IMG/VR virus record: IMGVR_UViG_3300018079_000006
Strand: one strand, 5' to 3'
DNA from: a virus
Length of the DNA stretch: 50,046 bases
Positions within the stretch are counted from its first letter, which is position 1. Each line of letters starts with the position of its first letter. The notes beneath the pieces are model-generated. The model worked only from the letters and a program-made list of their open reading frames with translations. It searched no databases and was not told the DNA's origin. The position numbers and the translations under genes are program-made. Below are positions 9,125 to 31,225 of the stretch, in pieces.

Positions 9125-9139
9125 TTGGAAGGATTGTTT

Positions 9140-9886
9140 ATGGATTTGGAAGAGCTGATAGTAGAAGTCAGGGAACGAATCGGTGAAGTTACGGAAGCAG
9201 ATTTCTTTACCGATGCCGAGGTCACGCGCGCGCTCAACGAGGGCCTTCGCCGGTTCTCTAATGAAGAGCGGTGGCCTTGGTTGTTCACCGAATTCTCGGG
9301 AACGACAACTATCGACGATGAGAACTTTGACCTTCCGGAGAACATCGCCCTGAACCGGGTATTCGGCCTAAATATCATGGACGACCTAACCCTAGCGGGT
9401 GGACAGATGCTGGAAAGAGTTCAACCTATGGAAGGTTTTCGGCTCAAGCACCAGTATCGCAATTACGATGGCGTTCCCAGATGGTACTATGTCTCGCATA
9501 CCAACCTAGATACGACCGCCGAGCCGCCCGTAATCTACACGGCCAAGCTTATTCCAGTACCGGACCTTGAATACGAAGTCACAGGTATCTACATGTTCGT
9601 TCCCCCCGCCCTGAGTGGAACGTCAGATGAGCCAGCGCTGCCGGAGGAGTACCAGGATGCCCTTCCGGCTTATGCGGCGGGTATCCTGTTCCTAAAGGAG
9701 CTTCAAATCTCCCAGAAGGCCGGTGAGCAGTTCGCGCTTTACAACGCGATCCTGGCGAATGCTGTCAAGGAGACCAAGCAGTTTGATGCTGATGAAGTCG
9801 TGGCTTGGGGCCGTTCGAAGCCAGTTCGTAGGATGGGGTTCGGCGAGTCGATCCTAAGCAGGATTCCTAGCACCCTGGGGCCGTAA
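9140..9886 (+). CDS. Tail tubular protein A / adaptor (T7 gp11-like)
   Basis: ATG 9140 after GGAAGGA. The N-terminal pattern EVRERIGEV...AEVTRALNEGLRRFSNEERWPW resembles T7 gp11 ILASIGEP...ARRILNKINRQIQSRGWTF. Confidence 0.45.
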   Translation: MDLEELIVEVRERIGEVTEADFFTDAEVTRALNEGLRRFSNEERWPWLFTEFSGTTTIDDENFDLPENIALNRVFGLNIMDDLTLAGGQMLERVQPMEGFRLKHQYRNYDGVPRWYYVSHTNLDTTAEPPVIYTAKLIPVPDLEYEVTGIYMFVPPALSGTSDEPALPEEYQDALPAYAAGILFLKELQISQKAGEQFALYNAILANAVKETKQFDADEVVAWGRSKPVRRMGFGESILSRIPSTLGP

Positions 9887-13407: not shown

Positions 13408-15423
13408 ATGCCCATAGATGTCGCACCTAATCGAATCGAGTTGTCGGAACTTCGTGGCGGTTTTGCGCCCGATCCGGAGGAAGCTAGTCTACCCCTAGAC
13501 CAGTCGCCGGATTTGATGAACTTGCTGCCAGATCCCGGTTCGGGTTCGGTAGAGCTCCGCAAGGGCTACGCTCGTCTCCTGGCGGGACGCTTAGATAGCT
13601 TATCCGGCACGCATTACATCCGCCACGTTAACTATTACGAGCTGATTGTCAGTGGCACGCGCAAGAAGTTCTTGGTGTGTGTGCTGACCAGCAGCGTAAA
13701 TGCATCTGCCAACAATATCCAGATTTTCGTGTATAACTTTGCTGCCGATACTTTTACCCGGGTAGACACGGTGGGTCGCTCGTGGGCTAAGGCTGACACC
13801 GAGCACTGGTACGCGATCGTAGAGGGCACATACTACGGTGGGACGCGCGGTGAAGTCATCTATTCGTGGCATCCTACAACCGGCTGGGACGCAGACCCGA
13901 CGACTCCCGATGTGAGAGATTGGCAGGACAATGTTGGCAATGCAATTAATACAGCCACGCAATATGGCCGCAACTTTGCTTTCAAGAAGGGAACAAAAAC
14001 CGAATTCAACTCAAGATTCTACTCTGCCCTGCGGGGCATCCGGTTCAAGACCTGGGAGAGCGGGGAGAGGTACAACAAGGGCGAACGCGTCTCTCGCAAG
14101 GTGAACCACGGGACGAGTACGTACTTTCGATCTTTCGAGTGCATCAAGACGAACACGTCGGATGCAACCAACAGGCCGGGAGATGGAACGGGTACACCAA
14201 CAGATTTCTGGAAGAATATCCGACTCAAGAACATCAAGGATGAGGACGGTGATATCACAAGTGACTGGGCATACATGCCGCTTCCGGGGAAGGGGGTGAT
14301 CGGCACCTATCATGGGAACCGCCTGTGGGTACGACACGACGACGCCGACAATTGGGGAAGACTCCAATACAGCGCCCCTGCAAAGCCCGAAAAAGATACA
14401 CTCATCTCCGACCTGGACTTTCGCCCTACCGACTGGGCTCCTGTTGACGACGATGACGGGGACGGGGGCGGTTGGTTCACGGTCCCGTTCTCGAAAGGTG
14501 ATGCAATCCGGGCGCTGTACGCAAACGGGAGCTATCTAGTCATCTGTGGCCGGTGGGAGAGCTTCGTCCTCGCGGGGGTTAACGAGCAGACGTGGAACCT
14601 ACGCCCCCTGGGCAAACTGGGGACCATAGGCCCGGGATGTATCACGGAGCATAAGGGGCTCGTCTACTTCTTATCCCCGACTGGGCAGTTGTGTATGACG
14701 GATGGTACGAGTATCGATGTCGCCCCCGGATTCGAAAAGGTACGCGAGTGGATAAAGACTCGCGTTGACAAGGTATACCAAGATACTCTCCTGTCGAGGC
14801 CCTCGATAGTATCTTACGGACCATTCATCCTGATGTCGATGGCAGACTCGGACAGCGCTGATTACACGCTAGTTTATCATCCGGACACCGCTTCTTTCTG
14901 GTTGTGGGACATCCCCATCCGCGACATGGCGGTAGGTGAAAGAGGAAAGTCTCAGCGGTTGTGGTTTGCTACCGCTATTACCAAGCAGGCGGGGGAGCGC
15001 CCGTGTTTGTTCCAGCTCACGGATGATCCCGGATCTGAAGCATTTGTAGACGATGATTTCACCGCGGCCGCCGCTTCCGCATCTACAGCTGATATCACCT
15101 GGCGCTACCGCACCGGCTGGTTCCAGTTCGGGCTGACGCGGAACGAGCGCAGACTCCGGCGCTTGTGGGCGCTCGTGGCCGGTGAGACCGGCGAGCAAGT
15201 GACAATTGCCATGCACAGGAATTTTGAAGAGGGGACGGACAACACGACCGTAAATCGTACCTTAGCCGGTACTGCTCAAGGCGAGTTCGTCGAGGGCAAA
15301 GTTGCCTCGACTCATGGTCACGCGATCGGCGTCAAACTGAGCGGAACCGCTAACGCACATACTGCTATCCACGGCATTGGTATCGACACAGAGCCACTGC
15401 GGACTAGGTTCAAGAGAGGGTAA
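13408..15423 (+). CDS. Tail tubular protein B / nozzle (T7 gp12-like)
   Basis: ATG 13408 after GAGG; 671 aa. The N-terminal pattern LRGGFAPDP...QSPDLMNLL...GSVELRKGY resembles gp12 LKGGISQQPD...Q..N...GLQKRP. It precedes the internal virion proteins. Confidence 0.45.
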   Translation: MPIDVAPNRIELSELRGGFAPDPEEASLPLDQSPDLMNLLPDPGSGSVELRKGYARLLAGRLDSLSGTHYIRHVNYYELIVSGTRKKFLVCVLTSSVNASANNIQIFVYNFAADTFTRVDTVGRSWAKADTEHWYAIVEGTYYGGTRGEVIYSWHPTTGWDADPTTPDVRDWQDNVGNAINTATQYGRNFAFKKGTKTEFNSRFYSALRGIRFKTWESGERYNKGERVSRKVNHGTSTYFRSFECIKTNTSDATNRPGDGTGTPTDFWKNIRLKNIKDEDGDITSDWAYMPLPGKGVIGTYHGNRLWVRHDDADNWGRLQYSAPAKPEKDTLISDLDFRPTDWAPVDDDDGDGGGWFTVPFSKGDAIRALYANGSYLVICGRWESFVLAGVNEQTWNLRPLGKLGTIGPGCITEHKGLVYFLSPTGQLCMTDGTSIDVAPGFEKVREWIKTRVDKVYQDTLLSRPSIVSYGPFILMSMADSDSADYTLVYHPDTASFWLWDIPIRDMAVGERGKSQRLWFATAITKQAGERPCLFQLTDDPGSEAFVDDDFTAAAASASTADITWRYRTGWFQFGLTRNERRLRRLWALVAGETGEQVTIAMHRNFEEGTDNTTVNRTLAGTAQGEFVEGKVASTHGHAIGVKLSGTANAHTAIHGIGIDTEPLRTRFKRG

Positions 15424-15424
15424 T

Positions 15425-16210
15425 ATGCCACTTCCATCGGGTGAGATGGGTCAAGGGGGAGCCCCAAAGCGTAAGAGAAATACTCAGGCGAATTCTATTT
15501 CTAAGGGTGGTGGATCAGGATTCCAGTTTGACTTCAGTTCGCTGACGGGCGGAGATCTTCCCGCTCTCGACCCGGCCGCCATCGCCAACTACTACGGCCA
15601 GATTCAGACGATGCAGGCTCAGCTTGCTAATACTCTTGCTGGCCTGAGACAACAGAGGGTTGGACTCAGAGGAGAAGCTGGAGTAGCCAGACAAGACGTA
15701 AAGGCCGAGGGACGGGCCGCGATGACTGAGACCGTAAATACCGGTCTTGAGCGCGGGATGTCCGGTGGGAGTGCCGATTTGGCTGGTCGGGCAGGCGTTC
15801 GCGCGGATGTCGCGGGCGGAATCGCGGATGTGAATCGATCCTTGTATAACCAGCTTGCCGAGAGTAGGATGCAGGGGACTGCCGCCGCCCTCGGGTTTGA
15901 CCAGGCTTCGCAGCAGCTTGAGATGAGTGCAATCGCCCAGCGAATGTCGCTAGCCCAACAGCAGGAAGCGAACCAGATTGCTATCCGCACCGCCAAGATG
16001 CAGGCATCCGCTACTGCTCAGAGTACAGCCGCCCAGATGGCGATGGCGCAGAAGCAACTACGGATTGAGAGGCAAACCGCGAAGGGCATGAAGGCTCAAG
16101 CAAATGATCCGACAGCTATTTGGGCTCAGTTCGGATTGACACCTCCTGGGGCACCCACAAGATCTGCTTTCCCCGGCAGAGTAAGTTCAACGGGGGAGTT
16201 TAGATACTAA
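15425..16210 (+). CDS. Internal virion protein (gp14-position), Q/A-rich helical
   Basis: ATG 15425 one nt after the preceding stop; low-complexity AQ-rich helices. Confidence 0.5.
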   Translation: MPLPSGEMGQGGAPKRKRNTQANSISKGGGSGFQFDFSSLTGGDLPALDPAAIANYYGQIQTMQAQLANTLAGLRQQRVGLRGEAGVARQDVKAEGRAAMTETVNTGLERGMSGGSADLAGRAGVRADVAGGIADVNRSLYNQLAESRMQGTAAALGFDQASQQLEMSAIAQRMSLAQQQEANQIAIRTAKMQASATAQSTAAQMAMAQKQLRIERQTAKGMKAQANDPTAIWAQFGLTPPGAPTRSAFPGRVSSTGEFRY

Positions 16211-17283
16211 TGGCGCAAACCTATGGAACTATTGTAGCCAGGCGCAACATGAGGGCTATTAGCAGATTGTCCGATAGAGCAAAAGCATCGGCTAGGCGGG
16301 TTCAATCCTCTGAGATGAAGACGAGGGAGATGTACGGCCAGGCAATGGCCGGTACAATCGCGCAAGCATATGATCCCGCCCAGGCGAGGGGGACTGCGGG
16401 GAAAATGACTCTGCAATCTCGCGTGGCTCAGGCAAAGGCAGCCGCGGCCGTCTCACAGGTCAGTACGGGCGTTTATGAGGCCGGAAAGGCCGCGTTGCCG
16501 ATTGCTCAAGATGCGGCGATGGCGCGAGTTACGCAGGCGGCCAAGCCGTCTGTGATTTCCGCCAAGAGCGCATTGGCTGAAGCAGATGCATATGTCAAGC
16601 AGATCGGTATCGACATGAAGAAGATGGATTGGTCCGCGAAGGCGGCAATCTACGAGTCGATCGTTTCACAGAATTTTGAGATGGCTAGGATGCAATTCGC
16701 CTCGCAACTCGAACTTGAAAGCCAGCAAAAGATGTTTGACTTGCAGCAGAAAATGGCCGCAGACGCTAAGCTTGAAGGAGCACCGGCCGTCGTGGAGGCT
16801 GTGGGGGCGCCGATGTCGCAGTTGGTCGTGGACCTTCAAGAAGCTTTGAAAAACAAGCAAGAGGATGGCACGATCAAGGTTGGAGATAATAACCTGAACG
16901 TGGCCGACTTTGCCCGCCAATGGGCCGCCTCCAATACGGTAGATCCGGCCGCCACGGCGCTTTTGACGGATATCATGTACAAGGCGGTTATGGGTGGGGC
17001 AGGTCATATCGGAGAAAATGGACTACCCGATTTCGGATGGGTCAAGGGCTTGATGAGAAATTCGATCACAAATGCCTACCCGGGTTACTCGGACTATGCC
17101 TCTGATATCGATGCGGCATTGACTCCGAAGCTATACGGCGCGACGTTGAATCAGAACATGGCCGGTGGAGGACTCTCCTGGTCGGGCTTCTTTGGCCCGG
17201 GCGGACCTCTTAGTGCGGAGCAATTTGGTCTTGCCGCCGAACTGACAAAATACGCGCCGATGGTGGGCGGCGGACTAATCTAA
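16210..17283 (+). CDS. Internal virion protein (gp15-position)
   Basis: 357 aa with a TAATG junction, located between the gp14-position and giant proteins. Confidence 0.5.
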   Translation: MAQTYGTIVARRNMRAISRLSDRAKASARRVQSSEMKTREMYGQAMAGTIAQAYDPAQARGTAGKMTLQSRVAQAKAAAAVSQVSTGVYEAGKAALPIAQDAAMARVTQAAKPSVISAKSALAEADAYVKQIGIDMKKMDWSAKAAIYESIVSQNFEMARMQFASQLELESQQKMFDLQQKMAADAKLEGAPAVVEAVGAPMSQLVVDLQEALKNKQEDGTIKVGDNNLNVADFARQWAASNTVDPAATALLTDIMYKAVMGGAGHIGENGLPDFGWVKGLMRNSITNAYPGYSDYASDIDAALTPKLYGATLNQNMAGGGLSWSGFFGPGGPLSAEQFGLAAELTKYAPMVGGGLI

Positions 17284-17296
17284 TGGGAGAAGTAAC

Positions 17297-20200
17297 TTGT
17301 CAACACCTCTAGAGCGGATGCTACCGGTACCTGCCGGTCTGCCCACTCCCCAAGGAATGCCCCTACCGGCGCCGGACCCGAACACGTTCGGACTCGGCCC
17401 GTTAGACGCACAGTCTTCTCTGTCAGCGTTTCTCCCGCAACAGCTTCAGATTCAGACACCAGGAATAGTTGCTGCGGGGGATGACTGGTTAACTAGAATG
17501 ACCACTGCTCTTGGCGGATCGGGCAACGCCGACCCCGCCGAGACTCTTCTCGGGGCTAATCAGCAAACGGATCGCGCGCTCGCAAGAATCGCCCAGGTAA
17601 ATCCAGAGCTTGCAGAGCAGTTGTCTGTTCAACGCGGGGAAGAGCCCGATAGTCCGGGTTTCTTTGGTCGTATCTTGCAGACGGTTGCGTCTTCGCCGCT
17701 GGGGAAGGCGCTGGAAATCATCACCAGGCCGGGAAGAATCATTCCCGAGATCCTGACTGATGGAGACGAGAGCATCTGGAAGAACGTGGGTGATGCCCTT
17801 AGCGGGCATTCCGACGCCACGATGGGCGACTGGCTCGAACAAATGAATATCATGCAGGGCGATGACCTCCTGTCCAAAATCGGGCGGGGGGTTACGTCAT
17901 TTGGCTTGGATGTTGCCGTAGACCCGCTGACGTATATGACTGCCGGTCTGGGATCAGTCGGCCGGATTGGAGCTACGAGGTTCGGCTCGATGACCGCTGC
18001 CAAGGCTGTGATGTATGGGGAAGGCTTGTCCACTCTGGACAATATTGCATCTACTTTAGGCAAGAAAGCCCTTAACCTTGCCGACGATGCTCCCTGGGAT
18101 CAAGTAAGGGCCAAGGCATTTGAACACTGGTGGAAGACGATTACAGACCCGCGAATGGGCCGGTCGGGGAAGTGGGGTGCTTTAGCAGACGATTTGTCCG
18201 TCGTTCACCAAGACTTTATCGGAGGGCCGCTAGGCATGGCCTTGCACGGGGCTGATAAAGCCGTTGCTCTTCACGCTTTGAAAGTTGCGGACGAGGCGCA
18301 CAAGGTCATCGGTAAATTTGGGCTTAACCGGCTCGGGCCAAAGATGGCCGAGCAATTCGGTATCCCGATAGACGAGATGACTAAGATTCTTCAAGCTCAA
18401 AAGATCGTAGGAAAGTTCGGGACCCGGGCGGAATACATGCAAGGACGTTATGCAGCCTCACTTCTTGGGGGGGTTCGATTCAGCCTGCCCGGTATCAGGA
18501 TTATTACTCCCGCTATATGGGGCACGGCCAAGATGGATATGAGCATCGCCAGGCGCTTCATGAGCGGCCTGAGCGGGCAATATAGAATCATGAGAGCTGT
18601 GGAACGTAAGACGCTTGACCCCTTTCTTGCCCGCCAAGCTCTCGAAGCCGCTACGACAGGTGGGTGGAACGGGCTGAAGCAGGCAGTTCCGCAAGTGGCA
18701 CAGCACTTTGGTGGACCGGGAGGTAGGCTGGGAACTGCGTTTGCTAGTGCCTCGTGGCAGATTGGTGGGATCACCCGTAACTTAGGCTCGTTTGCTCTCG
18801 TGCGCGGGGGCGGGCTCGGTACCGCACTGTCTGCTGACGCGCGGAAGACGGTTCGGTCTATCAAAGCAACCCTTCAAAGGGAAGCGCTCGAACTTGCAAA
18901 CGACGTGGACTTAGACGATCCCAAGCCCTTGGAAGACCTTGCTAATTCCGGCTTGAAGCTAGACGCTGTTGGTGACGTATCCAAACGCGGTACTGGCCGC
19001 ATGTCTGTGCCGGAGACTCAGAGGACGCTTCACCAACTCGACCGGCTAGTCAGGGAAAAGTATCCAGATGATCCGACGATCGTGATTCGCGCCTTGGAGT
19101 CGTTCCCAGATTATCGAGCGCAACAAATGGGCGCGGAACGTTGGTACAGCGAACGCACCGGGATCATCCAGAGGAACAAATTGCCCGACGATGTGATAGA
19201 GCAGATGTTGAAGACCAATGAGATTAGACTCTCGCACGCGAAGCAAGTCGAGCTTCTGATGAAGGAGTCGCCAGAGATCGGCTTAGCGGCTCGGATTTAC
19301 CGCCTTGCGGCTAAACAGACCGTAAAGATCCATAACGAGTTCGGAGGCCACACGGCCAACAGCACTATTCGCGCCGGGGCGGAGCCGGTGATTCACCCTG
19401 CCAACAGGCAGGTCGTGGAGACCGGGCACGTTTTACAGCACGGGAAGACTTATGTGCAGCGGGCCACCCGCCGGGAGGGCGTGGGTCCTGGTTTCGAGCT
19501 GGAAGATGTAGTAGACACTCCGTTCGGGCGCGGGTACGACCTGGAAGAGATTGATGAATTTGCCCCGCCGGTCCAGCCGGAAGCTCCTGGTACTAAGGGA
19601 GCCCCAGAGGGACCAGAGGGGCCAAGAGGTGGACCGGAACGGCCTTCTCCTGAGTCCCCGGAGCTTCCCCCGATCGAAATAGACATTGAGGGCAACAGCG
19701 TAAGGATCGACTTCGAAGGTTACGATAACGCCGCGAGCGGCAGGGCCGGACTGGACGCTGAGATCGACGAATCGGGCAATATCGTGATCCAGGGGGTCGG
19801 TCTCCCCGAAGAACTGCGGGGTCGCGGCCTCGGCAAGAAGATGTATCACAGGTTAGCCGACGAGGCTGAAAAGCGCGGCGGCGTCTTGATGTCTGATGTA
19901 ACTCTATCCGGGGACGCCCAAGAGCTTTGGCGCTCTTTGGCTAAGCGGAGTCCCAATCTCGTCGAGCCCCCCGACTTCGACAAGACGTTTAACTGGGTCA
20001 TGGACGCCTCCAAGCCCGCCGCCAAAGATCAGGGCGCCAAGGCGGACGCCTTCCTAAAGAATATAGAAGATGAGACCCAGAAGATGCTCGATGGCATCGA
20101 GTTAGACGACGTTCGAGAGCTTGACGATATCACTGACGCGGCAACCCAAGGCGAGGAAGCGTTTGCTGCGATCCAGAAGCAGTTAGATCTCGTAGCTAAA

Positions 20201-23200
20201 AAAGATCCAAGATACAACATGCCGGATAGAATGACTGGCGCCCAACTTCGAGAAGCATACGACCCCAAGGTTAAGTACGATGGGATCGAATGGCGCAAGA
20301 GCCACGGCAGCAAGGAAGAGTTCGCCAAGAAGCTGACTGAAGAGGGCCAGAAGCGCCCAATCCGCTTGGCGTACGACCCCGAGGACGGCCAGTACTTCAT
20401 CTTCGATGGGCACCATCGAGTTGAAGCTCTTGATCCCAGTGTCGAGTACGACGTGGAGTGGATTCCCGAACCTGCTTGGGTTGACGATGCCCAGGGATTC
20501 ATCAACCAGGTTGATGCAGAACTGACACCACTCCCCCGAGTTTCGAAGGCGCTCGGCGTTGGCGACGAGATCAAAAAGATGCATGTCGGCGACTTTGTTG
20601 AGCGTCCTGACATCGAGCCATCCGCCAACATCCGTACCCTGGTGGCGGGCTTCGGTGTGCCGGAGGAGCATCTCGACCTCATCGACAACTTTGCCCAGTC
20701 TGAGGCGGTGGACCCGAAGTGGGGGCAGATCCTCGGAAATAAGCAGATCGGCGAGTTGGACGAGGCGACGGACATCGCGTATTGGCAAGAGAAGCTGGGC
20801 TCAATCGACGCCTGGCACCGCTCGCGGTTCGAGGGCGATCCGGACTTCGACGAGTTCATGAAGCGCTCCCCGGAAATGGATCCCGGGCAGAAGGAGGACC
20901 TCGCGACCGAGCTGTTCGGCGACCCGCTTGACGGTGGCTGGAACAAGGTTTTGCCATCAGACTACCTGGAGATCATGGGTCCTGGAGCATTGGATGCCGA
21001 GATGGCTGCGATGGATGAGTTCATCGGCCGCTCGCTCGGGAAGATCCCGGAGAGCGATCCGCGCTTTAGGGACATAGTAGGAAAGGTCTTTACTCAGGAA
21101 GAATCCCAATACAACTCCGAGGGGATAGACAAGCTGATCAAAGACTTGCGGGAAGACCCACAGGCACGCGAGATCATCAATAAGGGTTCCAATGCTTACC
21201 CACGTAAGCAAGCTGTTGCCGCCTTGAAAAATCCCGTTGTGATCAATGAAGATGCCGCGGCTATGATCAAACGTGGCAAGCGCCCGGTCGATACGACTAC
21301 GGCAGGCGGGATGGATATTGCAGAGCAGGCTGACGAGTACGTCGCCAAGACAATGGAAATGTTCAACGAGAAGTGGGATCCGCAGATTCGCGCGATCCTC
21401 GATAATCCCAAGTTCGACGAAATGGATGAGCAAGTCCAGGAAATGCTAAAAGACCTAGGACTCGCCCCTGAAGGCATGACTCGGGAGATGGCGCGAATTG
21501 CACTGGAGTCGCAAGACGAGATTGCCGCCCGTCTGAAGACTCAGTTCTTAGAAGAAGCGGGCCACGATGGCGTTATTCATGTCAAGGACGGCAAGCAGCG
21601 CGTGGTAGTCTTTGAGAAGGGGCTACAAACGGGCGACAGAGCCCCGATCTGGGAGCTGACGAATGACGCCCCTATTTACGGCCCCGAGCAGGGCTACTTC
21701 CACCGCAGGATGACCTCAGAAGTTCACGAACTATTAGAGGGTAAGCCGGGTACGATTGAGCGCCGAGCCCCCCGCGACTGGGATGCTCATTTTGAGCGCC
21801 AGACAAAGGACATGAACTTTGGGGAGGCTGACAATCATATTCGCAAGATGCTGCGTGAGATGGATCTAGAAGTCCCTGATGATATGCGGATGTTGGATGT
21901 GGACGTGCCCGCTAACCTAGCCGCCTACGTTGACGGCATGGCTAACGATGTGGGCAACATCTACCTCGGTAGGCAGACTAGAAGGTTGCAACAGATGGGC
22001 TTGTCCCGCTCTCCGTTTACTTCCAGATTCCTCGGCCCGCGGTATGAGGCGGCTCCCTCCGCTGCGTATATGAACAGCGGCAAATGGCTTTCTCAGCAGT
22101 CCGAGAAATTCTGGCAGCTAGCTCAGAAGATGGCCAGGCACCAGACCAAGGTTGCCAAGGTTGCCCAAAAGGATATGCGTCGAATTGAGACCACGCTCGC
22201 AGGTCTGAACGAGCGAATTCAGAGTGCGATCGACCGCGAAGTTAATACAGTGCAGTGGCTTCAAGAGCATAGGGGCTTGCCGGAGGATATCGCCTCGGCC
22301 CGAAAGGCTGCCGCCACGCCAGAAAACCTTCGCCCGGGGTTGGTCAAGCAACTTCAAGGACGCGAAGCTGAATTGGATCGGCTAAGACAAAAAGCCGATT
22401 GGCAAACTAATGCAATGAAGGAGGCGGCGGAGGAGTGGAATAGAATCCAGTTCTCCGCGCAGGCCAGGGTTGCTGATCCCAAGGTCGCTTTGCGAATTGG
22501 AGATCCCGAACACGTCGGTATGGGCAAGGTCATGGTCCCGGGACTTGAGGATGTCTACATGCCCGCGACTATGGCGGACGAATTCAACTATGCTGCCAGG
22601 GGCTTCAAGAGTTTGAATGAATTCCAGAAAGTCTGGCGCCGCTACCTTTCTTGGTGGAAGGAATGGGCGACGTGGGCATGGCCCGGCTTCCACATCCGTA
22701 ACATGATGGGCGGCTGGTTCAATAACTGGCTTGGTGGAGTTCAAATCGAAGACTATGTAGAGATCGGCAGGGCTATGCGTGCCCGCCGGGAGGTGGAGAC
22801 TGGTGCTGCAAAACCAAAATGGTCAAGTACCAAGCTCCCCAGAGAGTTTATCAACAAGCACGGTCTGGGGGATTACTACTTTGGGCTCGATCCGACTTAC
22901 GCCGACCTCGCCGTCTTGCTTACCAACAACGGGATCAATGCCGGTAACAGCCAGACGTTCGGCGCGGCCAGAATCGGTTCTGAGCTACTAGACAAGGAGA
23001 TGGCAAAGCCTGCTGACTCTCCCTGGACGATCGTCGATACCGCGTTCCGCAAGAATGTTAAGGCCGGTAAGCCTGGTCGAATCATCGCCAAGAAACTACG
23101 CGGAACCGGCGAGCTTACTGAGAATATGCTTCGCGGGGCGGCCTTCCTTCAGGGGCTCAAGCAGACCGACGGCGACATGATGGGCGCCCACACGTTCACA

Positions 23201-24037
23201 ATGATGCGCCACGGTGATTATGGGGACCTGTCTGACTGGGAATACGGTGCGATCCGCGATGTCGTTCCCTTCTATAAGTGGATGCGAACTAACACGCCCC
23301 TCCAGATCCACACTCTGTTCGAGAATCCCGGCAAGTTGATGGGTGTCCTGCACGCTAAGGATGCCTTCTACACGGCGACCGGGATCGACCAGGAGGATGT
23401 GAGGAGCAAATTGCCGGAGTGGGCACAGGAAGGCTTTTCGATCCCGACACTGGGTAGTACTGAAGACGCGATCAACCTTGTCGCTGCCGACCTGCCGATG
23501 AATGACTTGTACCAAGGCGCGGGAGAATTGTTCTCAAGCATCCTGCCCCTCGCCCGGCCTTTCCTTGAGAGCTACGTGACTGAGAAGAGCTTCTTCACCG
23601 GGAAGCCGATTGAGGGCGCGCCGGTCAAGGTTGCCTGGATTGATAACATTCCGTTTGTCGGTAAATTGCTGTCCGGAATCGGGATCGGACAGACAGGAGA
23701 GGACGGCGGGTATTACATCGACGACAAACTTCAGAACACGTTGGGCGTGATTCCGATTGTCGGACGATTCCGAGACTGGCTATATGAAGACCCGAAGCGG
23801 ACCAAGCTTCGAGGCTCGGCCTTGATATCGGCTGCATCTGGTGTCTCTTTTAGGACTTACGGTGAGGCAGAGTTCATGTCCGAAGAGCTGAACTTCTATT
23901 ACGGAACGGTGTTGCCGACGATGGACTACCTCAAGCAGCTGGGATACCCGCTGCCAACGACAGAAGACCTCAACGCAATGTATGGGGCAACTAACAATGT
24001 ACTCGCAGCGGCCGGTATCCCGGCGGGAGGTGCGTAA
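17297..24037 (+). CDS. Giant internal virion/ejection protein with GNAT-like and ParB-like segments
   Basis: 2,246 aa with TTG start after GGGAGAAG. Residues 829-862 read IVIQGVGLPEELRGRGLGKKMYHRLADEAEKRGG; residues 1020-1045 read RPIRLAYDPEDGQYFIFDGHHRVEAL. It occupies the gp16 position. Confidence 0.7.
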   Translation: MSTPLERMLPVPAGLPTPQGMPLPAPDPNTFGLGPLDAQSSLSAFLPQQLQIQTPGIVAAGDDWLTRMTTALGGSGNADPAETLLGANQQTDRALARIAQVNPELAEQLSVQRGEEPDSPGFFGRILQTVASSPLGKALEIITRPGRIIPEILTDGDESIWKNVGDALSGHSDATMGDWLEQMNIMQGDDLLSKIGRGVTSFGLDVAVDPLTYMTAGLGSVGRIGATRFGSMTAAKAVMYGEGLSTLDNIASTLGKKALNLADDAPWDQVRAKAFEHWWKTITDPRMGRSGKWGALADDLSVVHQDFIGGPLGMALHGADKAVALHALKVADEAHKVIGKFGLNRLGPKMAEQFGIPIDEMTKILQAQKIVGKFGTRAEYMQGRYAASLLGGVRFSLPGIRIITPAIWGTAKMDMSIARRFMSGLSGQYRIMRAVERKTLDPFLARQALEAATTGGWNGLKQAVPQVAQHFGGPGGRLGTAFASASWQIGGITRNLGSFALVRGGGLGTALSADARKTVRSIKATLQREALELANDVDLDDPKPLEDLANSGLKLDAVGDVSKRGTGRMSVPETQRTLHQLDRLVREKYPDDPTIVIRALESFPDYRAQQMGAERWYSERTGIIQRNKLPDDVIEQMLKTNEIRLSHAKQVELLMKESPEIGLAARIYRLAAKQTVKIHNEFGGHTANSTIRAGAEPVIHPANRQVVETGHVLQHGKTYVQRATRREGVGPGFELEDVVDTPFGRGYDLEEIDEFAPPVQPEAPGTKGAPEGPEGPRGGPERPSPESPELPPIEIDIEGNSVRIDFEGYDNAASGRAGLDAEIDESGNIVIQGVGLPEELRGRGLGKKMYHRLADEAEKRGGVLMSDVTLSGDAQELWRSLAKRSPNLVEPPDFDKTFNWVMDASKPAAKDQGAKADAFLKNIEDETQKMLDGIELDDVRELDDITDAATQGEEAFAAIQKQLDLVAKKDPRYNMPDRMTGAQLREAYDPKVKYDGIEWRKSHGSKEEFAKKLTEEGQKRPIRLAYDPEDGQYFIFDGHHRVEALDPSVEYDVEWIPEPAWVDDAQGFINQVDAELTPLPRVSKALGVGDEIKKMHVGDFVERPDIEPSANIRTLVAGFGVPEEHLDLIDNFAQSEAVDPKWGQILGNKQIGELDEATDIAYWQEKLGSIDAWHRSRFEGDPDFDEFMKRSPEMDPGQKEDLATELFGDPLDGGWNKVLPSDYLEIMGPGALDAEMAAMDEFIGRSLGKIPESDPRFRDIVGKVFTQEESQYNSEGIDKLIKDLREDPQAREIINKGSNAYPRKQAVAALKNPVVINEDAAAMIKRGKRPVDTTTAGGMDIAEQADEYVAKTMEMFNEKWDPQIRAILDNPKFDEMDEQVQEMLKDLGLAPEGMTREMARIALESQDEIAARLKTQFLEEAGHDGVIHVKDGKQRVVVFEKGLQTGDRAPIWELTNDAPIYGPEQGYFHRRMTSEVHELLEGKPGTIERRAPRDWDAHFERQTKDMNFGEADNHIRKMLREMDLEVPDDMRMLDVDVPANLAAYVDGMANDVGNIYLGRQTRRLQQMGLSRSPFTSRFLGPRYEAAPSAAYMNSGKWLSQQSEKFWQLAQKMARHQTKVAKVAQKDMRRIETTLAGLNERIQSAIDREVNTVQWLQEHRGLPEDIASARKAAATPENLRPGLVKQLQGREAELDRLRQKADWQTNAMKEAAEEWNRIQFSAQARVADPKVALRIGDPEHVGMGKVMVPGLEDVYMPATMADEFNYAARGFKSLNEFQKVWRRYLSWWKEWATWAWPGFHIRNMMGGWFNNWLGGVQIEDYVEIGRAMRARREVETGAAKPKWSSTKLPREFINKHGLGDYYFGLDPTYADLAVLLTNNGINAGNSQTFGAARIGSELLDKEMAKPADSPWTIVDTAFRKNVKAGKPGRIIAKKLRGTGELTENMLRGAAFLQGLKQTDGDMMGAHTFTMMRHGDYGDLSDWEYGAIRDVVPFYKWMRTNTPLQIHTLFENPGKLMGVLHAKDAFYTATGIDQEDVRSKLPEWAQEGFSIPTLGSTEDAINLVAADLPMNDLYQGAGELFSSILPLARPFLESYVTEKSFFTGKPIEGAPVKVAWIDNIPFVGKLLSGIGIGQTGEDGGYYIDDKLQNTLGVIPIVGRFRDWLYEDPKRTKLRGSALISAASGVSFRTYGEAEFMSEELNFYYGTVLPTMDYLKQLGYPLPTTEDLNAMYGATNNVLAAAGIPAGGA

Positions 24038-24675
24038 TGGCGTACTACAACAAGACGCAGTGGCGCGCGAGTGTCAACAATGGTGACATTCCCCGTGACC
24101 TCCTGGCTGAGGTATATCCCCAGCAGTATGATATTGACTTGCAAGGTCCTGCTATCGCCCATCCTGACGCAGCCTTGGCAATGTCAGACTTCCTCGCGGA
24201 AGCTAAGGCTCAGGGCATTCATATCTGGGTCAAGTACAGTTATCGTACGCTGTCAAAGCAGTGGGAGAAGTGGATCGACTACCAAAACGGGGGAAACCTG
24301 GCAGCTTACCCCGGCACCAGCAACCACGGTTGGGCTGTGGCATTTGACTTGAGTTGGAGTCAAGACAGTGATATTGCTTGGGCGCACCACAACGCGGAGA
24401 GATTTGGATTCAAATTTGACATACCGAGTGAATCGTGGCACATCACGTACCAAGGTGGCTACGCGGAGGAAGTAGACATGAACCTAGATGAATACGAGGA
24501 GGGCTGGGATGCGCAGCTTGCCGGTATCGCCTTTAAGGACTTCTGGACCAAGCACAAGAAAAGGGGTTTCAACGCCGCCAAGGTAGCAACCTCGCGCCCC
24601 AAGGCTGAGGAGCACTTTCACGTGGGACTAGCGCAACACCCGCACGTCCACGGACAAGATACTCCGGTGGCATAA
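24037..24675 (+). CDS. Endolysin, peptidase M15 (VanY/L-Ala-D-Glu peptidase-like)
   Basis: Motifs SYRTLSKQ, PGTSNHGWAVAFD (H-x6-D) and SESWH. Confidence 0.8.
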   Translation: MAYYNKTQWRASVNNGDIPRDLLAEVYPQQYDIDLQGPAIAHPDAALAMSDFLAEAKAQGIHIWVKYSYRTLSKQWEKWIDYQNGGNLAAYPGTSNHGWAVAFDLSWSQDSDIAWAHHNAERFGFKFDIPSESWHITYQGGYAEEVDMNLDEYEEGWDAQLAGIAFKDFWTKHKKRGFNAAKVATSRPKAEEHFHVGLAQHPHVHGQDTPVA

Positions 24676-25040
24676 TGAACAAAGACTCTGACGCAAATGG
24701 CAACTATCACGGCTCTGATGGACGCTTCGTAAGTCTGCGCGACTACTTCGAGCGAGTGTTTCAAGACCACGCTAGAGAGCACAGACAACTCGCGGAGGGT
24801 ATCCGCATAGCAAGTGTCGCCCAGGACAAGCGCCTAGACGCCATGAATGAATTCCGCTCAGCCCTGGTGGACCAAACTAACCGCGGGGTCACCCGTGAGC
24901 TATTCGACGCGAGAGTCGATGTGCTCTCCACGGCGATCGGTGTGCTGGAAAAGCGCATGGCGTATTACGCAGGTGGCGCGGCAGTTGTAGGCGCCCTTCT
25001 CGGCTACCTCGCACGAGTAATTACGACAGGCAATGCATAA
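24675..25040 (+). CDS. Lysis-cassette protein with C-terminal transmembrane anchor
   Basis: Helical N-terminal part and C-terminal YYAGGAAVVGALLGYLARVI; TAATG junctions. Confidence 0.5.
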   Translation: MNKDSDANGNYHGSDGRFVSLRDYFERVFQDHAREHRQLAEGIRIASVAQDKRLDAMNEFRSALVDQTNRGVTRELFDARVDVLSTAIGVLEKRMAYYAGGAAVVGALLGYLARVITTGNA

Positions 25041-25255
25041 TGAAGCTACACAACTGGCATACCATCGGATGGATCGTCATCACGATGCTGTTCGTCCTCT
25101 GGGAGGTCATCGGCCTGGCGAACAAAGCCGATGCCAACCAGCCGCTTACGTACTTCATCCGCAAGATCGCAGGAACATGGACATCTCCAATGTGGTACCT
25201 CGTGGCGGGGTTCCTCGTCTGGCTGATCATCCACTTCCTCTTCGTTCACGAGTAA
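25040..25255 (+). CDS. Holin-like two-TM protein
   Basis: 71 aa with hydrophobic spans IGWIVITMLFVLWEVIGL and WYLVAGFLVWLIIHFLF. Confidence 0.55.
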   Translation: MKLHNWHTIGWIVITMLFVLWEVIGLANKADANQPLTYFIRKIAGTWTSPMWYLVAGFLVWLIIHFLFVHE

Positions 25256-25267
25256 GGAGGTGAAATT

Positions 25268-25423
25268 ATGGATAATGGTATTCAAGGTTTCGAAGTGTTG
25301 TTCTTTGTTGCTACTGTCGCTGCGGCAGTTCCGGCAGTTACAGCCGCGCTGAAGAAGAAAATCGATTACCTTGCAGTCAGTCTGGCATCGTTCTTCGGGG
25401 CGTTTTTGCTGGCAGCCTGGTAA
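25268..25423 (+). CDS. Unlisted 51-aa two-TM membrane protein (holin/antiholin-like)
   Basis: AAGGAGGTGA SD before ATG. Translation is MDNGIQGFEVLFFVATVAAAVPAVTAALKKKIDYLAVSLASFFGAFLLAAW. It falls below the ORF-track length cutoff. Confidence 0.6.
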   Translation: MDNGIQGFEVLFFVATVAAAVPAVTAALKKKIDYLAVSLASFFGAFLLAAW

Positions 25424-27584: not shown

Positions 27585-27826
27585 AGGTATTGTCCTTCCC
27601 CTGGTTTGTACTCGCCCATCTGCTTCTCCTCTACGCCCAGCGTAGCTAGGGCCTGGACCCTACTCTCAAACGGGACGAAGGGCACGGGCGCGTGGACGCA
27701 GGTAACGCCCGCCTTCTTGTTGATCATCTGTGCACAGTGAATCGCCAGGTCAAGGCCGACGACCGGCCCAAAAGCCTGGTGCATCTGTGTGCAGACGATG
27801 ACATACAGTTCTGGGTTATCGGTCAT
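27581..27826 (-). CDS. Hypothetical protein
   Basis: ATG 27826 in ATGA overlap with the polymerase stop, with GGAGAGAGG upstream. Confidence 0.55.
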   Translation of the reverse strand: MTDNPELYVIVCTQMHQAFGPVVGLDLAIHCAQMINKKAGVTCVHAPVPFVPFESRVQALATLGVEEKQMGEYKPGEGQYL

Positions 27827-29712
27827 TTTGCCTCTCTCCATGATTTAGCAATAATAGGGTCGAATACGATCGGCACGTTCAGTGCGAAGCCATGTCCAAA
27901 TTCGGCCAAGTATTTGAACGTCTTCAAGTGCGTCCACTGCACGTCATCGCGGTCGGCTTCGAACATGATCTCGTCATGAACTTGCAGGATTAGGTTCCAC
28001 TTCGGGAATTCTTCGTGGGCTAAAATCATTGTCTTCTGTGTGATATTGGCGGCACTTCCTTGGATCTTACTATTGACGCACTGCCGCTCGGCCTTCCATC
28101 CGTTTTCCCCTTTAAAGTTCAGGTGCCTGCGATGCCCGGCAATTGTCTCGACGTAGCCCAGTTCTCTACCACGCGCTACTTCTTCGTCCTTCCAGTTCCA
28201 GAAGACTTCGTACATCTCGGTGATGGCCTTATACGAGCGCTCCACCTCCCGAATGGAGAAATAGAATCCCTCCTCCGCGAGGTTGTCTTTGATCTTCGGA
28301 GGTCTGGCCCCGTAGCCCATGGCGAGGAAGCAGGTTCGTACCAGTTGTCGCTCCGGCGTGCCCTTGGAATAGTACTTCCCCAGAACTTCCATCGTTGTTT
28401 CTTCATAGATGTCCTTTCCTTCTTTGAAGACCTTTCTCATCATCGGGTCACCGGAGAAATGGGCCATCAATCTGGGCTCGATCTGGCTAAAGTCTCCGTT
28501 AACGAATACATTGTTGTCTTTTGGCCGGAACAAGCTTCGGATTTCCTTTCCAAGGCTGCCCCTTGATGGGACATTTTGGAGGTTTACCGGGTCGGACGAA
28601 GACAGCCTACCGGTTGCTGTTCCAGTCTGGTTGAAATGTGTGTGTAGTCTTCCATCCTTCTGGTGCTTCACCCATACCGCGAGGAACTGTAATGCCTTGT
28701 CGTACTCGCGGTATTTGATTAAATCCCCAATCCACGGATCTTGCCTACTGTGGTGAATTTTGAGCGTCTTAGAAGAGACGCTCGGTATGCACTTACCTGC
28801 CGGATGATCACATTTCTTCGCCGCGCATTTCGGAGCCTTGACTCTTGGTTTGAACCCAAAGCCCTTTAGTTCAAATTCACCATGGACTAACTCCCTTCCG
28901 ACCTTCTGGATGTCGAACCTCGTGTCAATTACGTCCGGCCAAACCCCTTCCTTTAGGTTTTCCATGTCGTACTTGTCTAGCCGGATCTTGGCCGGAAGCT
29001 TGTATTCCTTCGAGAACAACTGGTTGGCGATTTGGTCTCGACTGTTCAAATTAAACTGCTCGGGAAGTTTTGCGCCGTACCGCAAGTCTTTTTCCAACCC
29101 ACTGGCTAGGATAGAGTAGTCCAGTCGTAACTTATCGGTCATATTCATGCTGATCGGCAGGCCGTTTAGTTCCATGTCGAGCAAGACCTTGGAAAATGGC
29201 TCGTGCATATCCTTCCAGTAAGCCAAGGAACCGGCTGCTTCGAGCCTGCGATACATCTCAAAGTACAAGTCTTCGGTCATAGATAGGTCACGCCTATTGT
29301 AACGGCGCAGCTGATCCATCGGGGCCTGTCCGATAGGCACCAACTTACCATCATCACAACGGAAGTAGACTATTCCCTTCTGCCGGACAATCCTCTTGTC
29401 TGGGTCTATGTTCAAGTAGTTCTTGGAGCACCAATCCAGTGTCAACGGCGTAGTCTCGTCATATACGTAGCACATGACCTGGACATCCACGATAGGTCCG
29501 CCGATTTCGACACCGTGCTCGATCAACCAATGGTGGTCTGCCTTAGTAAATACAATCTTGCCGATCGACGGGTCTATCAACTTGTCGAAGGCGCCCGGCG
29601 GAATAGCATGGTACGGGTAAGAACTTCCACCAATCCCGAGTACTAGTAGCGGCTCGTCGTCTAGATTAGCATTCCACTCCAAGTCTAGAGTCACTAGTCC
29701 CTTAAGCGACAT
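27823..29712 (-). CDS. DNA polymerase, family A
   Basis: Motif A DFSQIEPRLMAHFSGD, motif B RQLVRTCFLAMGYG, motif C QVHDEIMFE, and an N-terminal TLDLEWN exonuclease-like motif. Confidence 0.9.
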   Translation of the reverse strand: MSLKGLVTLDLEWNANLDDEPLLVLGIGGSSYPYHAIPPGAFDKLIDPSIGKIVFTKADHHWLIEHGVEIGGPIVDVQVMCYVYDETTPLTLDWCSKNYLNIDPDKRIVRQKGIVYFRCDDGKLVPIGQAPMDQLRRYNRRDLSMTEDLYFEMYRRLEAAGSLAYWKDMHEPFSKVLLDMELNGLPISMNMTDKLRLDYSILASGLEKDLRYGAKLPEQFNLNSRDQIANQLFSKEYKLPAKIRLDKYDMENLKEGVWPDVIDTRFDIQKVGRELVHGEFELKGFGFKPRVKAPKCAAKKCDHPAGKCIPSVSSKTLKIHHSRQDPWIGDLIKYREYDKALQFLAVWVKHQKDGRLHTHFNQTGTATGRLSSSDPVNLQNVPSRGSLGKEIRSLFRPKDNNVFVNGDFSQIEPRLMAHFSGDPMMRKVFKEGKDIYEETTMEVLGKYYSKGTPERQLVRTCFLAMGYGARPPKIKDNLAEEGFYFSIREVERSYKAITEMYEVFWNWKDEEVARGRELGYVETIAGHRRHLNFKGENGWKAERQCVNSKIQGSAANITQKTMILAHEEFPKWNLILQVHDEIMFEADRDDVQWTHLKTFKYLAEFGHGFALNVPIVFDPIIAKSWREAK

Positions 29713-30163
29713 CCTTGATCCGCTCCCTCAACATCCGCGCGGCAGGACCCCCGGTCGGCCTGTCGTCAATCAGCACACCAATTTCAATCGCGTCTGCGAT
29801 AATGGCAGCCCCGGCTAGGATACCAGCCAGGTGGGTCTTGCCTGTCGCGCTCTCCGGGTCCACGTCCTCACCGTCAATCAGAGCGAAAGTATGGGCCAGG
29901 ATACCGCGCAGATACTGCATCAACTCGACTCTGCCTTCTCGCCAATTGAACGGGCCATACTTGGCGGCCCCTTCAGCCATCGCGTCTGAACCGAGAATGA
30001 CCCCCGCCATTGGGAACAGCTGAATTTGGGCCTTGCGGCTACCCATTTGGTTCTTCAAATTGCCGTCCCCAACTGCGTTATCAGAATCATTCATGCCGTC
30101 GCTGTAATAAGAATACATGGGGGAATCCGCATACCAAAGTCTTTCAATCTTACCATGGGTCAT
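29702..30163 (-). CDS. dATP/dGTP pyrophosphohydrolase-like protein (DUF5664-type)
   Basis: AAKYGPFNWREG ... LAHTFALIDGEDVDPESATGKTHLAGILAGA matches the KYG..NW / H...G.D.ESG..HL pattern of that family. Start is uncertain. Confidence 0.5.
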   Translation of the reverse strand: MTHGKIERLWYADSPMYSYYSDGMNDSDNAVGDGNLKNQMGSRKAQIQLFPMAGVILGSDAMAEGAAKYGPFNWREGRVELMQYLRGILAHTFALIDGEDVDPESATGKTHLAGILAGAAIIADAIEIGVLIDDRPTGGPAARMLRERIKDVA

Positions 30164-30740
30164 TGTGCCCGCCCTTCCCGTTGCTGATCTTGTCAACTAG
30201 GTTAACGACATCCTGCATCGTGTACGCTGTTGGGAACATGCCCTGCTCTTTAACATTTTGGCTTCTTGCGAATAAGATACCGACTCGGCCGGGTCTGGAC
30301 GCCACCCACCTATCCAACGTACTTGGCCGGTCGTCGATCAACACGTCGGCATTGGAGATATCTTCCTTACCGAAGTGGTTGGCGATCGTGACTTGATCGA
30401 ACGGGGGGTTATTGTATCCGAGCCAATTCCATACCACAGGCCTGGCCCATTCGGGTTTGTTGGTAACGATCTCAAGAGTGTGTCCCCGCGTCTTTAAGGT
30501 TTGGAGAGCATCTAGCGCCCCGGGCGTAGTCTTGGCATTGTACCAGTACTCCAAATGTATTTCAAGCCATTGGAGCCAGTCCATTCCCACGATATCGGAT
30601 GCGTGTTTAGACATGTCCCAGCCGTCGAGGATCAAACCTTCGCGGGTAATGGTAGCAGTTGGATGCTGCTCATTTACACTATCACACCATGCCTGCACGA
30701 AATCCACAAGAACATCGTCATAGTCAAAGGCTAGTTTCAC
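30150..30740 (-). CDS. HAD-family 5'(3')-deoxyribonucleotidase-like protein (NT5C-like)
   Basis: GTG 30740 in a GTGA overlap; motifs FDYDDVLVDF and VLIDDRP. Confidence 0.6.
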   Translation of the reverse strand: MKLAFDYDDVLVDFVQAWCDSVNEQHPTATITREGLILDGWDMSKHASDIVGMDWLQWLEIHLEYWYNAKTTPGALDALQTLKTRGHTLEIVTNKPEWARPVVWNWLGYNNPPFDQVTIANHFGKEDISNADVLIDDRPSTLDRWVASRPGRVGILFARSQNVKEQGMFPTAYTMQDVVNLVDKISNGKGGHNDPW

Positions 30741-31225
30741 CTCGACACCTCCCTGTAAGAGACTCCGGCCTCGTCCAGGTAAGATTGGGTCAGGGCAAAG
30801 GATTCCGCCCACCGGCTCATCATGCCTTTGGTATCTTCAGGCCAGACGAATCGCGAGATACCCGCTTGTAGCATGTGGACTACGCACCGGTCACAGCACA
30901 TGGTGGTTGTATAGAGCATGTAACCCCGTACTGGCTCGACTGCCGCTAGTAGAGCATTCATCTCGCAATGAACAATTCGGCTCAACTTCTTGGGCCGGTC
31001 AGCGTACAGCTCCTCATCGTCCCGCATGTTTCGCGGGAAGCCGTTGAAGCCCACGCTGGCGATCGAGCGATTCGGCCGCACGATGACAGCTCCGGTCTGC
31101 GTATTCGGGTCCTTGCTCCACGTCTTGATGAGACTTGCCATATCAAGGAATCGCTGATCCCACTTGTCTCTCTTTTCAAAAACTTCTGGCCAGAATTCGT
31201 TACTCCAGGTTTCTAGTTCCCTCAC
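30737..31225 (-). CDS. dCMP deaminase
   Basis: Zinc motifs VHCEMNALLAA and TMCCDRC; GTGA overlap at the start. Confidence 0.8.
   Translation of the reverse strand: MRELETWSNEFWPEVFEKRDKWDQRFLDMASLIKTWSKDPNTQTGAVIVRPNRSIASVGFNGFPRNMRDDEELYADRPKKLSRIVHCEMNALLAAVEPVRGYMLYTTTMCCDRCVVHMLQAGISRFVWPEDTKGMMSRWAESFALTQSYLDEAGVSYREVSR

Follow-up and report, generated by a model that had tools for sequence, protein, structure and literature searches.

The window analysed here is a stretch of 50,046 nucleotides from an uncultured virus (IMG/VR record IMGVR_UViG_3300018079_000006), and the question raised by this locus is what the 2,246-residue protein encoded on its plus strand at 17297-24037, here called the giant protein, might do. 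In our view the gene product is probably a giant polyvalent internal protein of the virion, from a podovirus lineage not sampled before whose portal is of the SU10/P22 type; the host-acting modules of the protein would be injected into the cell. The reasons are the relatives of its individual modules, the architecture of its family and its conserved place in the genome.

The open reading frame (ORF) runs without interruption through 2246 codons including a TTG start at 17297, and its stop codon is at 24035-24037. A Shine-Dalgarno sequence, GGGAG, lies 7 nucleotides upstream of this TTG and an ATG at 17318 agrees with the N-termini of the homologues, therefore either start is possible, 7 codons apart (2246 amino acids (aa) from the TTG, 2239 aa from the ATG). 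An identical protein (P0001, 2239 aa, called from the ATG at 17318) is encoded by ENA metagenome contigs of 50,064 and 43,343 base pairs, meaning that the window is essentially one complete uncultured phage genome. Zero matches were obtained when the gene was compared with 50,697 GenBank phage records by megablast and tblastn. A search of 5.8 billion protein clusters gave a set of 14 homologues (1809-3075 aa, 21-63% identity), the regions of which were mapped by BLAST; since these 14 proteins cover the ORF, it is not a chance frame. The first-pass annotation of this DNA had quoted three peptides from the protein, and the ORF and all three peptides were found at exactly the positions it gave: IVIQGVGLPEELRGRGLGKKMYHRLADEAEKRGG at residues 829-862 (nucleotides 19781-19882), RPIRLAYDPEDGQYFIFDGHHRVEAL at residues 1020-1045 (20354-20431) and AGHDGVIHVKDGKQRVVVFEKG at residues 1421-1442 (21557-21622).

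The enzyme-like modules

The first peptide belongs to a mini-GNAT module at residues ~796-915 (19682-20041, plus strand) whose motif A loop is R-G-R-G-L-G and which has no N-terminal alpha1-alpha2 arm. Among the Pfam models of the GNAT superfamily (clan CL0257), Acetyltransf_1 gave E=0.001 and 19.8 bits on the giant protein itself, below its gathering score of 20.7, and Acetyltransf_CG gave E=0.011; all seven PDB sequence matches at E<=10 were GNATs, with the beta4-loop-alpha3 motif as the aligned part. When residues 790-1480 were searched exhaustively with phmmer in a set of 1.84 billion representative proteins (E<=0.001), 50 matches were returned, about 45 of them outside the family and nearly all of these on residues ~810-915. 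The best non-family matches to the GNAT region (E=1e-8) are single-domain proteins, and 8 of the ten non-family matches that were scanned had a Pfam GNAT match, 7 of them at or above the gathering score. Because phmmer links the region to Pfam-validated GNATs with E-values down to 1e-8, the homology of residues ~796-915 to bona fide GNATs is established at the level of sequence comparison, and the GNAT-like module proposed earlier from its motif is thereby upheld.

Several of these relatives are large proteins. P0021 and P0028 are large polyvalent proteins that carry LPD22 or LPD14, and P0034 and P0036 are polyvalent proteins in which an ART-PolyVal domain follows immediately after the GNAT (P0034 also has PBECR5 and MuF_C, P0036 also has Fic). 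Motif A reads IVIQGVGLPEELRGRGLGKKMYHRLADEAEKRG in the giant protein and RRQGVA at the same place in its homologue P0002, i.e. the pyrophosphate-binding loop R/Q-x-x-G-x-G/A is kept in both family GNAT copies. In the AlphaFold model the GNAT region (predicted local distance difference test, pLDDT, 55-77) consists of four strands, alpha3, beta5 and alpha4 with no N-terminal arm, and a strand-loop-helix lies at motif A. When the model was compared with PDB by Foldseek, 15 of the top 50 matches were GNATs (5c82, root-mean-square deviation (rmsd) 2.5 over 65 columns; 1r57, TMt 0.52), all at E>0.3. The module resembles the minimal GNATs of the Acetyltransf_CG/YjdJ type (PDB 1r57), which have about 100 residues with strands followed by alpha3, beta5 and alpha4 and no N-terminal arm, and a match of the 1r57 type is present in both the sequence and the Foldseek lists. 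Unlike these proteins, the GNAT of the giant protein is embedded in 2,246 aa, and the identity is ~17-24%.

Tandem arrays of mini-GNATs within single polypeptides were also observed among the relatives (P0016, P0017, P0018, P0025, P0026 and P0029). P0016, with 4480 aa, has at least 14 GNAT copies by local phmmer and 22 matched stretches in the exhaustive search, which is unusual for an acetyltransferase domain.

The second peptide lies in a ParB/sulfiredoxin (ParB/Srx)-like module at residues ~976-1075 (20222-20521, plus strand), the core of which is formed by a helix, the strand PIRLAY, the strand YFIFDG, the HHR and a helix. The DGHHR motif is invariant in all four copies of the family (the giant protein, P0002, P0003 and P0006), where it is preceded by a strand PI(R/V)(L/I/M)xYD and followed by a helix. 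All four copies match ParB-like PHROGs, with phrog_26387 and phrog_2159 matched by every copy; the best E-values among the copies are 3.4e-6 (phrog_4715) and 7.5e-5 (phrog_1033), and the segment of the giant protein alone matches the ParB-like phrog_1033 at E=3.6e-4. A profile of the four copies has 1vk1 and SbnI, both ParB/Srx folds, as its three best PDB matches (E=0.08-0.44), and the NCBIfam matches of the module are the ParB/Srx relatives SerK (E=0.001), parB_part (E=0.0085, one copy) and SbnI, plus an unnamed hypothetical-protein model. The AlphaFold model points the same way: for residues 795-1290, with pLDDT 55-77 over the GNAT and ParB modules, the Foldseek top 50 in PDB consist of 31 ParB/Srx, 15 GNAT and 4 other structures. 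The ParB/Srx matches (E>=0.08) include sulfiredoxin 6ky4 (probability 0.99, TMt 0.64, rmsd 3.6), KorB, ParB, Noc, PadC, SerK and Spo0J.

The evidence for this second module is weaker than for the GNAT but consistent, and on sequence and model together residues ~976-1075 are probably a ParB/Srx domain, as had been read from the DGHHR motif. The module shares a conserved active-site arginine, and probably the ParB/Srx fold, with the P1 DdrB-like ParB domains, the Osa-type ParB-like nuclease/NTPase and the ParB-methyltransferases. Like the DdrB-type domain, it sits in a giant protein that is linked to the virion by gene position and has no ParA partner. Neither the DdrB-ParB nor the ParBc model of Pfam matches it, its best matches at family level are generic phage ParB-like PHROGs and a PHROG of ParB-fused DNA methyltransferases, and it does not belong to the DdrB-like subfamily. 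The sole non-family "ParB" match of the exhaustive search, P0042, was rejected as spurious; it is an NHL-repeat protein that matches via a YDPxDG-type repeat. A second ParB-like motif, LLLLEGNHRRATAV, was noted in P0002.

The third peptide had been described as the end of another globular module, left without a name. The peptide AGHDGVIHVKDGKQRVVVFEKG is the beta-hairpin that closes a family-wide element of the middle domain (residues ~1405-1445, 21509-21631, plus strand), a helix plus beta-hairpin with the consensus G[YHF]DG-x-I...TVF that resembles the C-terminal strands of ART-PolyVal. The same hairpin ends the real ART-PolyVal domain of P0002. When the 135-residue insert of the latter was removed in silico, its Pfam match, which had covered profile positions 1-89 of 140 at 50.2 bits, came to span positions 1-131 at 55.7 bits (E=1e-14 with the insert removed), and because the match thus extends to 131 the GYDG hairpin can be assigned to ART-PolyVal. 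Comparing the middle-domain alignment with the P0002 ART by hhalign gave P=2.2e-5 over 32 columns, which contain the Asp-bearing hairpin G(H/Y)DG, and the middle-domain hairpin of P0004 matches ART-PolyVal positions 91-126 at E=0.024. The middle domain of the giant protein itself gave no match to Pfam ART-PolyVal even at E<=10. The catalytic set of ART-PolyVal consists of a His in strand 1, a Tyr in strand 2 and an Asp in strand 5 (PMC5512222). A complete ART-PolyVal domain was considered for the middle domain and rejected, as only the last 32 columns align reliably and, of this catalytic set, only the Asp-bearing hairpin is recognisable. By its sequence, the middle-domain element thus resembles the C-terminal part of ART-PolyVal, and the hairpin may be a degenerate remnant of such a domain.

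Scaffold, cargo and genomic slot

Three scaffold regions are common to the homologues: an N domain (residues 1-750, 17297-19546), a middle domain (~1300-1655, 21194-22261) and a C domain (1660-2246, 22274-24034), all on the plus strand. None of them belongs to a Pfam, PHROG or NCBIfam family. The N domain is kept in 13 of the 14 homologues and the middle domain is conserved in most of the family. The C domain is the most conserved part (33-68% identity among homologues), and the most distant homologue, P0015, aligns over this domain alone. Its signatures are WK-x-WAT-x(2)-PGFH-x-RN and RHGDY-x-DL-x-D-x-E...PFYKWMRTN-x-P-x-Q-x-H.

Invariant polar and W-rich motifs of the C domain, including WK-x-WATW-x-WPGFH-x-RN, persist as far as podovirus MW202803. 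No known family or fold was matched by these motifs, and we speculate that a site of catalysis or metal binding, or an element active on membranes, could lie here.

The basal size of the family is ~1850 aa, and the members differ in the cargo found between the scaffold regions. The first cargo hot spot follows the N domain at a Pro/Gly/Glu-rich linker (residues ~751-795, 19547-19681, plus strand), where the inserts differ among homologues. In the giant protein the insert between the N and middle domains has ~530 residues. P0002 (3075 aa) has at the same site a 1300-residue insert with a GNAT-like module, an ART-PolyVal domain (Pfam E=4e-12), module X and a ParB-like module in a different order; P0003 has the ParB module and module X without the hot-spot-1 GNAT, and P0004 and P0005 carry other small inserts. 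Module X (residues ~1093-1290, 20573-21166, plus strand) is acidic and helical and occurs in P0002 and P0003 only (53-58% identity); the exhaustive phmmer search found no relatives of it outside these two proteins. Many members of the family have a further variable insert, placed between the middle and C domains.

This second hot spot (equivalent to about 22260-22300 in the window) holds in 10 homologues (P0003, P0004 and P0006-P0013) a module of ~120 residues with the pattern YY-x-V-D..G-x-V...R-x-V ... x-G-x-G-x-x-L...HW-x-D-x-G ... S-x-x-G. A relocated mini-GNAT was considered for this module; hhalign gave P=2.9e-4 (probability 41%) and the HMM-versus-sequence comparison was non-significant, so the identification is kept as a possibility only. 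Three other inserts look ART-like by motif only, namely those of P0004 (~765-851, LYRGEG...GSWFTSNP, with an R-S-E-type start), P0005 (~744-917, GYVYHITPRENF...GGL, H-Y-type start) and P0006 (~1500-1620, NFVYHWGR...PGVYFGAS, H-Y-type start).

Structural comparison of the AlphaFold model of residues 1290-2246, which is nearly all helical, gave only coiled-coil noise when searched against PDB with Foldseek. Against BFVD, four significant matches were found (E=6.5e-10 to 1.8e-7, probability 1.00); three of the four are C-terminal pieces of proteins of uncultured Caudovirales named "Large polyvalent protein associated domain-containing", and the fourth carries no name in the tables used.

The giant gene is the last large gene of the virion-structural block, and it occupies the same slot in four related contigs and in one distant podovirus. 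On the plus strand, the block consists of the large terminase (47174-48697), an SU10/P22-type portal, two 314-aa proteins, two Mtd_N fibre-like proteins and an SU10-type adaptor (9125-9886), followed by several family-less proteins, a conserved trio of 671, 261 and 357 aa (13408-17283) and then the giant gene. The trio are candidate tail-tube and small internal proteins. Directly 3' of the giant gene is a plus-strand lysis cassette (24037-25423) with a VanY-like peptidase (24037-24675), a 121-aa ORF and two holin-like ORFs (25040-25255 and 25268-25423, two transmembrane segments each), past which the coding strand flips and the replication and nucleotide-metabolism genes begin. The order of ~680-aa, ~265-aa and ~370-aa proteins and the giant protein, then lysis or small genes and then the strand switch, is complete in three related contigs, and a fourth, truncated upstream, retains the two proteins nearest the giant gene. 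In MW202803, a distant podovirus, this slot ahead of a VanY-type peptidase is taken by a helical protein of 1312 aa that is annotated as "chromosome segregation". The last 300 residues of that protein can be aligned with the C domain of the giant protein (E=2e-7) and retain the motifs WK-x-WAT..PGF..RN and H-x-DY...VPF..M..N..LQ.H. From the family architecture, the synteny and this C-domain homologue, we infer that the scaffold is the ancestral occupant of the slot and that the enzyme-like modules are accretions.

The presence of an SU10-type adaptor and an SU10/P22-type portal identifies the phage as a podovirus, and long-tail genes are absent. The portal matches a single phage record, at 19.7% identity, and five of the upstream structural proteins have no family in PHROGs; by its sequence the lineage is very remote from sequenced phages. 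The first-pass annotation had placed the gene in the gp16 slot of a T7-type phage, downstream of a gp11/gp12-like pair. Its placing as the last of the structural genes, ahead of the lysis cassette, holds and is kept by synteny. The T7 assignment is not supported: no homology to T7 gp11, gp12, gp14, gp15 or gp16 was detected in PHROGs, by phmmer against PDB or by Foldseek, which leaves the gp11/gp12-like pair without support, and the upstream 671-aa protein gave no phmmer match in PDB. The connector is of the SU10/P22 type as judged from its sequence, and the phage is not demonstrably T7-like.

Relation to polyvalent proteins and proposed role

It is useful to compare the giant protein with systems that are already described. 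Phage polyvalent proteins are large multi-domain proteins that are proposed to be packed in the virion and injected along with the phage DNA, and GNATs (typically beside an ART) and ParB/Srx domains are listed among their components by Iyer, Burroughs, Anand, de Souza and Aravind in 2017 (PMC5512222), who also described the GNAT-ART dyad and discussed T4 Alt and P1 DdrB in their model. The giant protein shares the main features of this class. It is a very large late-gene product beside virion genes, the last of the structural block before the lysis cassette, and it strings together several unrelated conflict-type domains in one polypeptide of 2,246 aa (GNAT, ParB/Srx, the ART-like remnant and module X). 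Its GNAT falls in a clade whose other large members have ART-PolyVal (PF18760) directly downstream, its sister protein P0002 has both a GNAT and ART-PolyVal, and its C-terminal half matches polyvalent-annotated proteins in BFVD. By these sequence relationships the giant protein is assigned to the described class of phage polyvalent proteins. The earlier pointer to polyvalent early effectors was thus well placed, as both the GNAT relatives and the structural relatives of the C-terminal half are polyvalent proteins. The earlier remark that the combination of GNAT and ParB was not recognised as a described one makes the protein look too novel, since both were listed as polyvalent components in 2017 (PMC5512222) and a giant polyvalent protein, phi24B gp47, is known from podovirus virions.

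There are also differences. The giant protein has no detectable LPD, MuF, metallopeptidase or other Pfam polyvalent marker and its scaffold domains are unannotated. In contrast to the polyvalent GNAT-ART proteins, its ART is a C-terminal hairpin only, and the ParB/Srx module and module X are found between the GNAT and this remnant. A close parallel, and the only precedent for physical presence in virions, is gp47 of the Stx podovirus phi24B, a polyvalent protein of 2,811 aa that was found in podovirus virions by proteomics and was proposed to be an ejection protein (bioRxiv 10.64898/2026.04.10.717836). Both are giant polyvalent podovirus proteins proposed to be packed in the capsid and ejected. 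They differ in that gp47 has LPD5, LPD1, LPD38 and a MuF-C metallopeptidase, none of which is found in the giant protein, and in that gp47 was detected in virions, whereas the giant protein is known from sequence alone, with no sequence relationship shown between the two. T7 gp16 and P22 gp7/gp16/gp20 share with the giant protein the position at the end of a podovirus tail/internal-protein block and the helical character, but no sequence or structural similarity to it was detected, and the giant protein has no lytic transglycosylase domain. The portal and adaptor found here are SU10/P22-like, unlike those of T7.

As polyvalent proteins, the GNAT-ART dyad and ParB domains were described before, the value of the giant protein is that of an additional, well-delimited polyvalent family from a phage group with almost no sequenced relatives. 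New are the scaffold family, which has no annotation and belongs to a podovirus lineage that sequence databases hardly contain, the two fixed cargo hot spots and, in a comparison made without the 2017 supplementary architecture lists, the presence of a non-DdrB ParB module, a mini-GNAT, module X and an ART-like remnant in one protein.

A possible course of events is as follows. The conserved, nearly all-helical scaffold (N, middle and C domains) would presumably serve for packaging in the capsid and for passage, or as a conduit, at ejection. After the N domain, the hot spot would have accreted three modules: a GNAT acyl-CoA transferase of minimal form, a domain of the ParB/Srx type (a fold for NTP binding or nicking, here with its DGHHR arginine loop intact) and the acidic helical module X. 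The middle domain would retain an ART-PolyVal-like C-terminal hairpin. During infection the protein would pass into the cell together with the DNA or in front of it. Its modules could there turn on host targets through protein acetylation and NTP-dependent binding or nicking of DNA, weakening defence or seizing control of the host while all phage genes are still silent. Packaging and ejection are suggested by the synteny and by analogy with the polyvalent-protein model (PMC5512222), T4 Alt, P1 DdrB and phi24B gp47, and the catalytic activity and the targets of the modules are likewise proposed by analogy.

A number of results weigh against this proposal. The virion association of the giant protein is read solely from gene order and analogy, and no resemblance of the scaffold to T7 gp14-16, to the P22 ejection proteins or to any PDB entry was detected. 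A hydropathy scan found no transmembrane segments in the giant protein or in the three preceding proteins, and Pfam revealed no peptidoglycan-degrading element in the giant protein; Pfam and PHROG scans were likewise empty for lysozyme and transglycosylase domains, as the first reading of the sequence had stated. Both AlphaFold models are of low confidence (mean pLDDT 56 for residues 1290-2246 and 54 for 795-1290), and for the latter no Foldseek match in PDB reached E<=0.001. The Pfam models ParBc and DdrB-ParB do not match the ParB module, and the exhaustive single-sequence phmmer search found no true ParB relative outside the family. The catalytic His of strand 1 and Tyr of strand 2 of the ART H-Y-D set could not be aligned with confidence. 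The GNAT is truncated to a mini form, its Pfam score falls just short of the threshold and long tandem arrays are frequent among its relatives, therefore a role in binding instead of catalysis is possible.

This last point leads to the most serious alternative, namely that the giant protein is indeed a virion-internal or pilot protein, but that its GNAT-, ParB- and ART-like modules are non-catalytic and have a binding or structural function; the leading end of the phage DNA might, for instance, be clamped or capped by the ParB/Srx domain, with the mini-GNAT serving to bind CoA or another protein as its partner. The minimal form of the GNAT without its N-terminal arm, the arrays of 14 or more copies per polypeptide, which are unusual for enzymes, the ART-like element with no recognisable His and Tyr and the very divergent ParB core of ~100 residues would all fit such a role. 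However, both GNAT copies of the family keep the diagnostic loop R-x-x-G-x-G/A and all four ParB copies keep DGHHR, which argues for retained ligand binding, and close relatives of the GNAT stand beside an intact ART-PolyVal domain in proteins of the effector type, so that we regard the non-catalytic explanation as unlikely, if worth keeping in mind. We consider it less likely still that the protein is not ejected at all and is a structural protein of the tail or hub, a tape-measure-like protein or a late non-virion protein. The BFVD matches below the top four are mostly tape-measure and minor-tail proteins, and the derivation of virion association from gene order leaves room for this idea, but those matches have E>=0.004 and very low TM-scores, as expected of any long helical protein, and the significant BFVD matches are polyvalent-annotated (three of the four are so named). 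Moreover, the portal and adaptor are those of a podovirus and genes for a long tail are absent, enzyme-like cargo within a tail structural protein is hard to explain, and phi24B offers a direct precedent for the packaging of such a protein in the capsid. Chance resemblance as the source of the GNAT-like and ParB-like motifs, in a protein that is long and evolves fast, seems very improbable. The Pfam, PDB and Foldseek E-values of the giant protein are indeed individually not significant, but for the GNAT module this explanation is effectively refuted by the Pfam-validated relatives (E down to 1e-8), all four ParB copies match ParB-like PHROGs (best E=3.4e-6), and independent methods agree on the two folds, with 46 of the top 50 Foldseek matches being ParB/Srx or GNAT structures.

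A more elaborate version of the injected-effector proposal can be imagined, in which the mini-GNAT is an obligatory cargo of nearly every scaffold member, moved between the two hot spots, and acts together with the ParB/Srx domain in a pilot complex associated with the DNA end; ParB would clamp or cap the entering genome in an NTP-dependent manner and the GNAT would acetylate a host defence or nucleoid protein at the site of entry. This joint scenario is highly speculative and we think it improbable, but if it were true, it would amount to a mechanism for protecting the injected genome, not to a generic string of effectors. If, as we favour, the giant protein is packaged and ejected, the lineage would deliver a ready-made acyltransferase and a ParB/Srx NTPase or nuclease before phage transcription. 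The family can also be viewed as a natural experiment in which one scaffold carries swappable cargo (GNAT, ART, ParB, module X and others) at two fixed hot spots. Such swapping could help to map which modules counter which host defences, and the family could help to define the roles of the scaffold domains in packaging and ejection.

Other genes of the window and of related contigs

In the contig that encodes P0012 (L009), the slot that corresponds to 15425-16210 of the window is occupied by a longer protein (L009 1234-2238, 334 aa) with a faint VanY peptidase match. This protein lies two genes 5' of the giant gene and would fit a cell-wall-cutting internal protein. At 6312-8014 of the window (plus strand), two adjacent proteins of 154 and 412 aa each start with an Mtd_N domain; the 412-aa protein matches collagen-like and tail-fibre PHROGs, and the pair are probably receptor-binding fibres.

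On the minus strand (29702-31225), a MazZ-like protein with a dGTP_diPhyd_N domain (153 aa), an NT5C 5'-nucleotidase (196 aa) and a dCMP deaminase (162 aa) form a cluster that adjoins DNA polymerase A (27823-29712). No PurZ-like gene was found beside the MazZ-like gene in the precomputed Pfam list. The cluster hints at manipulation of the nucleotide pool or at a modified base, and the pair of MazZ-like and NT5C genes is also present in the related contigs L008 and L009.

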